IMG/VR virus record: IMGVR_UViG_3300034024_000020
Coordinates: 1 to 64,000 of that record
From: a virus
Reading direction: 5' to 3' (one strand)
DNA length: 64,000 bases
This document shows, piece after piece, positions 16,505-49,336 of the stretch. The number at the start of each line of letters is the position of its first letter. The first letter of the stretch is position 1. Below the pieces are notes generated by a model. It was given only the letters and a program-made list of their open reading frames with translations. It was not told the origin of the DNA and did not search any database. The position numbers were made by a program, and so were the translations under genes.

Positions 16505-16575
16505 ACTATGTGATCCGTCGGACGGAACTCCCCTCTAAAGGGACATATAAACAGGTTCAACTCCTGTACATAGTC
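16505..16575 (+). tRNA. Embedded tRNA-like element, anticodon CTA (amber-suppressor type), no CCA
   Basis: actatgt/acatagt acceptor; tccg/cgga D-stem; tccc-CTCTAAA-ggga anticodon arm; acagg-TTCAACT-cctgt T-arm. Confidence 0.7.
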
Positions 16576-25618: not shown

Positions 25619-25891
25619 ATGGAAGAGCAAGAAACTAACATTCTCAATCTTATCGCTGATATTCGCACTCTTGGCGATGATCTAGAAGAGCGTAGCGAAG
25701 AGCTGGCAAAGCTTGAAGGACAGGTTGAAGATACGAAGGAAGATGTAGAGCATCTTCGTGCTGAAATTCGTGCTAAGCGAGATCAGCTAGACGGAATTCT
25801 CGATGAGCTTATTCCTGACCGTCAGGAAGAGGACCGAGGTAGTGGTTACGGCAATTTTGACCTTGTAAGTCCGATTCGCAGTAACTATTAA
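25619..25891 (+). CDS. Coiled-coil hypothetical protein
   Basis: Heptad-rich ORF after promoter 25561. Confidence 0.65.
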   Translation: MEEQETNILNLIADIRTLGDDLEERSEELAKLEGQVEDTKEDVEHLRAEIRAKRDQLDGILDELIPDRQEEDRGSGYGNFDLVSPIRSNY

Positions 25892-25894
25892 GAT

Positions 25895-26222
25895 ATAGTC
25901 GTTGACGACTGTAGTAAAAGCCGGAGGATACGCGGGTTCAACTCCCGCCACCTCCACCAAAACAAGACCGCCTTTTGCGCAGAGGGTAGCTAGGTTGGCA
26001 GGGTGGCTCGCGCAGCTGTCCGACAGGTTCGAGTCCTGAGTGTCTTGTTTTGATGGGGGTGAACTGGGATCGACCGAGGGCGGAATAAGCAATCTGAGAC
26101 TATTGACTGGCAAAGTGCCATAAGTAAAGGCAAATGATAATGAGCCTATGGAGGAAATGGAGCTTCGCCTAGCGGCGTAAGCTCTCTCCGGGGACTGGCC
26201 CACCTGTCACAACAACGGGCCA
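25895..26222 (+). ncRNA. ssrA: Two-piece (circularly permuted) tmRNA
   Basis: Acceptor piece ends gcggg-ttcaact-cccgc-cacctcc-a-CCA (25959); coding piece starts GGGGGTG (26055) giving G3.U70; tag ANDNEPMEEMELRLAA* at 26130-26180. Confidence 0.9.
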
Positions 26223-26727
26223 ACAAGCCGCGAGGCATCATTAGAAGCAGGAGAAGCAATGTTAACAGTAAAAATACGTAATAAAGACGGAAATGAGAAT
26301 ATAATTGAAGCAACCAGCGTAGAATGGATCGAGAAGCCCACACAGGGTGAAGTAGGTCACATTATGCCTGGTGTTTTGGCACATCTGCCCAACGGAGGTT
26401 GTTCAGAATATTTGCTAGACGATAATCCCGGTATGACTATCTGGGTTATGAATAGAGCGGGTGCAACAGTTTCTAACTACATTTTTGGTGAGAGATAATG
26501 GGGCATTACTCTGACCTAATGGAAGAAGACGATCGACGACAAAGAGCAGCGGATGCGGAGCGTCGAGAACAGAAAGGGAACGAAGTCCTAAAAAGAACTA
26601 GAGTTCTATTTCATGGCGTAGGAATGCTAGACCGACATATTGATATGAAGGTCGCAGAATTAGAAGGCTTAATCCTTAGATATATCAGGGGTGGCTAATT
26701 TAACATGAAAGGCGGTGAAAACCATAT

Positions 26728-46803: not shown

Positions 46804-46849
46804 TAAAATAGTTCTTGACATTGTACTGAATTTTTCATATAATGGGATA

Positions 46850-47715
46850 TCAAAACGACGGAAATAACAAGTTTGGCCGTATGGGGTCATTAGGGTAAGG
46901 GTGGCGACACCCCCAAAGCAGGGAAGCTTACATACCTGCGCTCGCAAGAGTCCATCTATACAAGCCTACATCACGCCCGAAAGGGTGTCTTCGTGAAGAG
47001 CGGAGATAGTCGTGAAGTGAGGTTGAGGAAAGAATTCTGGTCGATGTCCCGCAAGGAAGGCAGGCTGGAGAAGAACGGGGTAGTAGCCGTCTCTCAGCAC
47101 ACTAAACTCGCGAACGATGATGGTAAATGGTAGTGCCATTGTTCGATGCTTAGCGGCAAAGGGCTTCGGTGCAATTCAAACGGTTGGTGGGAGTCACACC
47201 CACGTAGATCGTGAAGAATGATTGAGTAGGTTTAGCAGACCAAAAGATAGCATAGGCGTGTTGTATTTCGTAGATTAATAGTCTGCGAAGCGACAGAGGT
47301 AGCACGTCTTGGTAAGTTAATGCAATTTGTTCAATGGTAGAACATTAGTCTATGAAACTGAGAGTGTTGGTTCGATTCCAACATTGCAAGCTATAAAAAC
47401 GCAAAGACTACCTCGGTATACAGCGAAAGTCATCTAATGCCGGACTAAAGAATTCGGCCTAGGAAAGCTCGCAAGGCAGACCTAGTTCATGGTAGATCGC
47501 TCATAAATCTCTTAGCGGAGGTTGAACGGCTCGCAAGGTCGGTGGGAAGGAAATCGTGGAGTAGTTGTATATGTCACCGCAAAAGCTAGCGGTATATCAA
47601 ATGAGCGATGATGTTCATTAGTGGCAACCCTGCCTCTGGAAACCTGATTAAGCACCTCGCAAAAGGTCCGCGTACGGTCAGAAGATTGAACAATTAATAG
47701 GTGTATTCTCAGCCT
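46850..47715 (+). ncRNA. GOLLD-like large ncRNA (~865 nt)
   Basis: Own promoter (46815); ORF-free; many GCAA/GAAA-capped hairpins; GAGTAG..AAAG..GGCGTGTTGTATT segment and 3' end GGTGTATTCTCAGCCT recalled as GOLLD-like; lies inside a phage tRNA array. Confidence 0.75.
47321..47388 (+). tRNA. tRNA-like element embedded in the GOLLD-like RNA, anticodon ATG
   Basis: tgcaat/attgca; gttc/gaac D-stem; ttagt-ctATGaa-actga; gttgg-ttcgatt-ccaac; no CCA. Confidence 0.7.
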
Positions 47716-47733
47716 ATGTTTTAACGAGTTTTT

Positions 47734-47767
47734 ATGTCGCCCAGGTTCGGAAGAAAGCAAGCGGCAT
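47734..47767 (+). ncRNA. Minimal SRP RNA helix-8-like hairpin
   Basis: atgtcgc-c-CAGG-ttc-GGAA-gaa-AGCA-a-gcggcat. Confidence 0.6.
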
Positions 47768-47770
47768 CAA

Positions 47771-47842
47771 GCCCCCATCGAAGGAGCGACGTTTGGCCTT
47801 CTAAGCCGAAATGTGTGGGTTCGAGTCCCTCTGGGGGTTCCA
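47771..47842 (+). tRNA. tRNA-Arg(TCT)
   Basis: Loop ctTCTaa; CCA. Confidence 0.8.
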
Positions 47843-48054
47843 TTTAAGGAGATGTAAGTGAACCTAATTTCTTGGATAGTTTTAGGCGGTTATGTCTTTA
47901 TTGCAGCATGTGTTCTGGCAGCGCTTCGAGTGGGAGCAGCTAAGGAAGGCGTGAAGCTCAATTGGGTCTATTTGTTCATTGCAGCAATTTGGCCTTTGTG
48001 GATAGTATTTTACCTTTGGGTTCTAGTATATAGCTGGGCCAATAGAGATAGAAC

Positions 48055-48129
48055 GGTAGCGTAGCTTAAAGGCGAAGCCACCCGCTCATAACGGGCAGAG
48101 TGTGAGTTCGAGTCTCACCGCTACCACCA
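48055..48129 (+). tRNA. tRNA-Met(CAT)
   Basis: Canonical cloverleaf; CCA. Confidence 0.88.
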
Positions 48130-49191: not shown

Positions 49192-49222
49192 AGCCCTCCA
49201 AGGAGACTTGGAGGGCTTTTTC
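49192..49222 (+). terminator. Terminator closing the tRNA region
   Basis: agccctccaag-gaga-cttggagggct-tttt. Confidence 0.85.
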
Positions 49223-49336
49223 TTTGCTGCGCCGATCCACCAAAAATACAGTTTCGTGTTACGTGTGGCGCTGAATATAGTTCTTGACATGTGACTTAGA
49301 AAGCCGTATAATGAGACTCAAGACGGGAGATTTCAC

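Follow-up and report, generated by a model that had tools for sequence, protein, structure and literature searches.

A minimised SRP RNA apex in the tRNA/GOLLD operon of a T5-like phage, a candidate decoy or modulator of host SRP proteins

A 34-nt hairpin found in the genome of an uncultivated T5-like phage reproduces the apex of the bacterial SRP RNA on a plain stem and is an SRP-RNA-derived mini-hairpin belonging to a class that recurs in phages. SRP RNA is a universal housekeeping RNA with which bacteria deliver their membrane proteins. The function that we favour for the hairpin, with a probability of about one in two and on the basis of sequence comparisons, is that of a minimised SRP RNA apex, processed into a mini-RNA, which would serve as a decoy or modulator of the host Ffh and/or FtsY.

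The stretch of DNA analysed (hereafter referred to as the window) comprises the first 64 kb of the IMG/VR virus record IMGVR_UViG_3300034024_000020, a 115.7-kb genome rated complete by CheckV. The family-A DNA polymerase of the phage is ~45% identical to the polymerases of T5-like phages, and its RNA cargo includes about 35 tRNAs and a permuted tmRNA. The latter (25866-26271) carries the tag ANDNEPMEEMELRLAA and is of the alphaproteobacterial style, while a tRNA with a CTA (amber) anticodon is located at 16505-16575, far from the main tRNA array.

The hairpin occupies positions 47734-47767 on the plus strand (ATGTCGC-C-CAGG-TTC-GGAA-GAA-AGCA-A-GCGGCAT) and is made up of the following parts, with the basis of each assignment given in brackets.

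47734..47740, plus strand: 5' strand of the basal stem, AUGUCGC (sequence, fold)
47741..47745, plus strand: C of the C/A closing mismatch and 5' strand of the symmetric loop, CAGG (sequence, RF00169 alignment)
47746..47755, plus strand: apical 3-bp stem UUC/GAA with the GGAA tetraloop at 47749-47752 (sequence, RF00169 alignment, fold)
47756..47760, plus strand: 3' strand of the symmetric loop, AGCA, and A of the C/A mismatch (sequence, RF00169 alignment)
47761..47767, plus strand: 3' strand of the basal stem, GCGGCAU (sequence, fold)

The basal stem consists of seven pairs (A-U, U-A, G-C, U.G, C-G, G-C and C-G), above which are placed the C/A mismatch, a 4x4 symmetric loop formed by CAGG and AGCA (5x5 when the mismatch is counted with it), the 3-bp UUC/GAA stem and the GGAA cap. 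Both the minimum free energy and the centroid predictions give this fold, for the element alone as well as in a 156-nt context that includes the tRNA. The arrangement described in the initial annotation, CAGG-UUC-GGAA-GAA-AGCA on a 7-bp stem, is thus borne out by the sequence and the fold. The folding energy of -10.6 kcal/mol is unremarkable in comparison with shuffled sequences (z -0.55), a stability figure limited by the nearest-neighbour rules, which give no credit to the non-canonical pairs of the symmetric loop.

A scan with the Rfam model for the bacterial small SRP RNA (Bacteria_small_SRP, RF00169), as had been suggested with the initial annotation, gave a local match at 47738-47763 covering model positions 34-59 of 97, with a score of 24.9 bits as against the gathering cut-off of 40 bits. 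The E-value of the match was 0.003 for the 251 nt searched and 3.2e-4 for the whole 115.7-kb genome, in which the hairpin is the sole match. Both strands of the symmetric loop and all the loop nucleotides of the hairpin correspond to the RF00169 consensus, and the GNRA tetraloop (GGAA) stands atop a 3-bp apical stem as in the family. The asymmetric internal loop located 3-4 bp below the symmetric loop is absent and a continuous 7-bp stem is found instead; the long helix 5, which carries the 5'/3' distal end, is also absent, the match being confined to the model positions given above and the tRNA starting 3 nt past the stem. The continuous stem and the partial model coverage agree with the earlier remark that the asymmetric loop and the distal helix are missing. 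As these two elements are absent, identity with a full SRP RNA is excluded, and since the hairpin, in addition to lacking them, does not reach the family cut-off, it is placed outside RF00169.

The apex itself is that of natural SRP RNAs. An 18-mer spanning it, CAGGTTCGGAAGAAAGCA, is shared without change by genuine SRP RNAs from over 120 GTDB species, all of which carry it in the asymmetric-loop context gAAyyC.../...GUAa, so that the plain stem beneath the loop is what distinguishes the window hairpin from them. Natural SRP RNAs include examples of the UUC/GAA stem and of the C/A closing, and the interpretation of UUC/GAA as a compensatory variant is confirmed by the occurrence of the same 18-mer in these species. 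Inference of the host from the apex sequence was rejected, the 18-mer being too widespread to be informative. The hairpin shares CAGG/AGCA, the apical stem of 3 bp and the GGAA tetraloop in identical form with the bacterial 4.5S RNA (ffs, RF00169), but measures 34 nt rather than ~100 nt, is devoid of the asymmetric loop, helix 5 and the distal GTPase-activating site, and has its gene in the tRNA/GOLLD operon of a lytic-type phage. The covariance-model match and the identity with the natural apex, together with the recurrence in phages described below, support the earlier proposal that the hairpin is a minimal version of SRP RNA helix 8, either a mimic or a derivative; the sequestering or rewiring of Ffh/FtsY proposed alongside it is a putative function.

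The hairpin is embedded in a unit rich in RNA genes, the features of which are listed below.

46815..46843, plus strand: promoter-like TTGACA-17-TATAAT with 12/12 positions of the sigma-70 consensus, probable start of the GOLLD/tRNA unit
47251..47715, plus strand: GOLLD RNA (RF02032), conserved 3' part as in the Rfam model (156.9 bits, cut-off 150)
47320-47391, plus strand: tRNA-His embedded in GOLLD (tRNA calls)
47716..47733, plus strand: A/U-rich unpaired spacer from the GOLLD 3' end to the hairpin (sequence, fold)
47768..47770, plus strand: CAA linker from the hairpin to tRNA-Arg, which would form the 3' tail of the hairpin after the expected RNase P cut
47771..47842, plus strand: tRNA-Arg, anticodon TCT, CCA encoded (tRNA calls)
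47858..48064, plus strand: co-transcribed ORF of 68 aa, hydrophobic, with AAGGAG upstream
49192..49217, plus strand: strong terminator-like hairpin of 11 bp with a T run, probable end of the unit

The 5' variable part of GOLLD probably starts near 46850, and the unit from promoter to terminator thus holds GOLLD with tRNA-His, the hairpin, tRNA-Arg, the 68-aa ORF, tRNA-Met, further small ORFs and two tRNA-Gly. As a perfect promoter and a terminator bracket this unit, the hairpin is very probably transcribed. Its location by itself between GOLLD and tRNA-Arg, which had been noted previously, holds, with GOLLD ending at 47715 and tRNA-Arg starting at 47771. Reading of 47734-47847 as a 37-aa ORF was rejected, as the frame crosses the tRNA-Arg gene. 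A second perfect 12/12 sigma-70 promoter (TTGACA-17-TATAAT) is located at 49284-49312 and flanks, together with that at 46815-46843, the terminator at 49192-49217; the two perfect promoters suggest strong RNA operons driven by the host RNA polymerase. The tRNA-His embedded in GOLLD was called with the anticodon ATG, the usual one being GTG, and other tRNA-His(gtg) genes are present in the array. No SRP54-type GTPase (Ffh or FtsY) is encoded by the phage, and any protein partner of the hairpin would therefore be derived from the host.

The hairpin is not a part of GOLLD, since the SRP-like motif was found in none of the 119 loci with a GOLLD-type 3' end and the most similar GOLLDs (L258 and L348) are without it; the possibility that it represents a regular 3' appendage of GOLLD was rejected on the same grounds. 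The niche common to the mini hairpins is the tRNA island. In five other loci (L348, L342, L251, L286 and L351), downstream of GGTGTAATCTCAGCC, the GOLLD 3' end gives way to a hairpin domain of conserved appearance, beyond which lies a tRNA; the hairpin domain occupies the same position as the SRP-like hairpin here. Two huge-phage contigs carry an SRP RNA ~470 nt upstream of a same-strand GOLLD, amid tRNAs (L031:10491-11427 on the minus strand of a 372-kb contig, and L119:4390-5348 on the minus strand of a 229-kb contig). These SRP RNAs are full-length and of the Bacteroidia type (42.3 and 47.2 bits, respectively), and a shared origin with them is not supported, as the window GOLLD is nearer to those of L258 and L348.

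Searches among the relatives of the phage indicate that the hairpin is a lineage-specific element. Megablast and blastn searches of the region gave no match among GenBank phages, relatives identified from the flanking phosphoesterase are distant (at most 52% identity) and without the SRP-like motif, and no other copy of the exact hairpin 24-mer was found in metagenome contigs. The closest complete genomes as judged by the DNA polymerase, G001 and G002 (~70% polymerase identity), have neither the hairpin nor GOLLD, and no RF00169 match was obtained in the clade, examined as these two complete relatives and 43 fragments. Conservation in relatives, proposed earlier as a check, is thus negative within the clade and positive in a weaker form, in that phages unrelated to this one carry similar hairpins; as the clade relatives lack the hairpin, purifying selection within the lineage is not demonstrable. 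The order of tRNA-Arg, small hydrophobic ORF and tRNA-Met is kept in G001, in which a second tRNA-Arg directly upstream stands at the place taken here by GOLLD and the hairpin. As a small hydrophobic ORF follows tRNA-Arg both here (68 aa) and in G001 (L524, from about 1545), at 70% polymerase identity, a conserved small membrane-protein gene is present inside the tRNA island. At L524:1452-1530 in G001, 2 nt past tRNA-Arg(cct), is a tRNA-like sequence with the anticodon loop CUUCUAA and a normal T arm, which is not called by ARAGORN and matches the 3' half of the window tRNA-Arg(tct).

Recurrence was examined by a complete scan of IMG/VR with the pattern CCAGGNNCGGAAGNNAGCAA, which gave 25 loci, with both apex pairs formed in 19 of them as against a chance expectation of ~3.5. 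Of these 19, thirteen resemble full SRP RNAs; six of the thirteen are located in the tRNA arrays of 94-372-kb phage contigs and the rest at prophage/host borders. The remaining six (L021/L032, L101, L478, L490 and L491) are hairpins without the asymmetric loop, and are counted as five lineages, L021 and L032 being near-identical. Their uninterrupted stems measure 4-16 bp, they lie 7-59 nt from a same-strand tRNA, and each is the sole RF00169 match in its record (22.6-28.8 bits); no SRP54-type gene over the cut-off was found in the five other mini-bearing records. Across five hairpins without the asymmetric loop, the stems show strong covariation, with 96% of the cells paired, double changes at nine of ten pairs and a score reached by none of 500 shuffles, although the test is partly circular since the search pattern prescribed the loops and the sequences were then chosen for their stems. 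The window hairpin shares the provisional features of this class, namely the SRP symmetric loop and GGAA on an uninterrupted stem with a C/A closing, a position 3 nt upstream of a same-strand tRNA-Arg, and a genome with neither an SRP54-type GTPase nor a second, full-length SRP RNA.

Longer forms were also observed. A parallel scan for U.G-closed motifs gave no form without the asymmetric loop among its 21 paired matches, and identified two shortened RNAs, L504 and L507, which keep that loop and are located in tRNA arrays, the latter measuring 45 nt (43.2 bits) in a 350-kb genome with terminal repeats. In these scans, minis without the asymmetric loop thus occurred solely with the C/A-closed motifs, in which they make up 6/19 paired loci (five lineages) in addition to the window. 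Full-length SRP RNAs above the cut-off are present in the tRNA arrays of L010/L053, L056, L094, L031 and L119, and the shortened and full-length RNAs together occur in the tRNA arrays of 94-497-kb phage contigs, so that phages hold a graded series of SRP RNA forms from full-length down to minimal. Like the other SRP-RNA-like genes in the tRNA arrays of large phages, the window hairpin is on the same strand as the flanking tRNAs, in a phage without Ffh or FtsY, and with L021/L032, L101, L478, L490 and L491 it shares the continuous stem and the C/A closing. It differs in being the shortest seen here and the sole one adjoining a GOLLD 3' end, and in belonging to a 116-kb T5-like phage and not to a jumbo phage; L504 and L507 differ from it in keeping the asymmetric loop, and L031, L119, L010 and L094 in being full-length. 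A tRNA-Arg follows directly after three of the eight short SRP-like hairpins (the window, 47771, tct; L476:1553/G009, ccg; L504, ccg, about 17 nt downstream of the motif), a recurrence that may be a coincidence. Since similar stubs accompany clustered tRNA genes in several large phages that are unrelated, the hairpin is probably a real RNA that engages host SRP proteins.

The known contacts of the SRP RNA give the basis for a proposed mode of action. The symmetric loop forms the SRP54 surface and has invariant A-C and G pairs, and the asymmetric loop also contacts SRP54 (PMC4605306). In the early complex the tetraloop is bound to the NG domain of the receptor, and it accelerates SRP-receptor assembly, while the distal end triggers GTP hydrolysis (PMC4737761). 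The hairpin would thus be a phage-encoded minimised copy of the domain IV apex of the SRP (4.5S) RNA on a plain 7-bp stem. Transcribed together with GOLLD and the tRNAs from the consensus promoter, it would probably be freed as an RNA of ~35-55 nt by RNase P cleavage of the tRNA-Arg located 3 nt downstream. With the symmetric loop it would retain the SRP54/Ffh M-domain surface and with GGAA the FtsY contact, and the mini-RNA may engage host Ffh and/or FtsY yet be unable to complete the cycle, as the Ffh-FtsY GTPase dimer would have no docking place from which to trigger hydrolysis without the helix-5 distal site. The affinity for Ffh is probably weaker, given that the asymmetric loop is missing. 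The absence of the distal GTPase site and of the asymmetric loop makes it more likely, as judged from the sequence, that the hairpin competes with or perturbs the host SRP rather than replacing the 4.5S RNA; its processing, its binding and the direction of its effect are all inferred. Synthetic hairpins provide a proof of principle for a decoy. PNA-tet and moRNA-tet, which like the phage hairpin are short GGAA hairpins on few pairs, bind FtsY-NG, compete with the 4.5S RNA and inhibit SRP-FtsY assembly in vitro (PMC11404819). Unlike the phage hairpin, which is natural and carries an Ffh-type loop, they are man-made, without the symmetric loop and specific to FtsY.

Other explanations of the hairpin were weighed against this role. 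It is unlikely, though conceivable, that the mini-RNA forms with host Ffh a working or partly working SRP and thereby sustains the targeting of phage membrane proteins after the shut-off of host transcription, in the way that phage tRNAs replenish the host pool. The surroundings of about 35 tRNAs and a tmRNA are a translation-support cargo, and the full-length SRP RNAs of other large phages fit supply better than sabotage. The host 4.5S RNA, however, is a stable RNA, which makes the need for such a supplement less obvious. At the level of the structure, the tetraloop that accelerates assembly is intact, but the distal site that triggers GTP hydrolysis is absent (PMC4737761), as is the asymmetric loop. 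The tRNAs and tmRNAs of T5-like and jumbo phages are similarly host-type housekeeping RNAs, which lie together with the hairpin and probably share its transcription and processing; they are complete functional copies, whereas the hairpin is a fragment of its cellular counterpart.

A comparably improbable explanation regards the hairpin as an evolutionary relic, a decayed and now functionless piece of an ffs gene that was formerly complete and either phage-borne or captured from a host. The graded forms in phages, the score below the family cut-off and the nearest relatives without the hairpin are in keeping with decay. All the loop nucleotides are nevertheless intact, a perfect helix and not random sequence stands in place of the asymmetric-loop region, five or more other phage lineages show the continuous stem as well, and the hairpin lies within a strongly promoted RNA operon.

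A role in cis is distinctly less probable. Here the hairpin would bring SRP or Ffh onto the polycistronic transcript, so that, for instance, the 68-aa ORF is translated at the membrane, or would act as a leader for the processing of tRNA-Arg. This would account for its position 3 nt before tRNA-Arg and ~90 nt before a hydrophobic ORF with a good ribosome-binding site, and the recurrence of tRNA-Arg directly after three of eight mini forms points the same way. On the other hand, G001 has the tRNA-Arg and the small ORF without the hairpin, tRNA processing would part the hairpin from the ORF, and the other minis are without such downstream ORFs.

A chance likeness in a generic spacer, stability or processing hairpin is very unlikely. 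The folding energy is no better than that of shuffled sequences and other phages frequently carry a hairpin in the interval from the GOLLD 3' end to the following tRNA, both of which a generic hairpin would explain. The window contains a single copy of the exact 14-base core, CAGGNNCGGAAGNNAGCA, and by our own estimate this core, combined with the two apex pairs and a stem of 7 bp, is expected ~1e-7 times per genome by chance. At E<=0.01, RF00169 matched none of 85 other phage records (45 of the same phage clade and 40 GOLLD-motif phage records) and a relaxed motif gave no match in 1.93 Mb of other phage loci, to which the absence of the motif from the GOLLD-3'-end loci is added. Least probable of all is a remnant of an attachment site, carried by a temperate phage that integrates into ffs, for although an attB within ffs has been described (PMC12540744) and SRP RNAs occur at prophage/host borders with an adjoining opposite-strand tRNA-Ser (L046, L485 and L488), the T5-like genome is judged complete with the hairpin internal to it, inside an RNA operon, and the hairpin corresponds to the SRP RNA apex whereas att sites normally duplicate the 3' end.

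Our literature search found no published phage-encoded SRP RNA or fragment, the sole link to phages being integration into ffs (PMC12540744). On a wider scale, it is possible, but as yet tentative, that minimal SRP-RNA decoys constitute a family distributed among large and T5-like phages. Matured by the tRNA machinery, such decoys would trap host Ffh and/or FtsY away from the distal site, and during infection they would slow or divert co-translational membrane targeting in the host. Such a family, if true, would mean that viruses attack the bacterial SRP pathway by means of RNA. A natural 34-nt hairpin with only the Ffh-binding-type loop and the FtsY-contact tetraloop is a ready separation-of-function molecule. 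If the hairpin binds, it would show the minimal RNA needed to engage the SRP proteins and would suggest that phage takeover has the SRP pathway among its targets.
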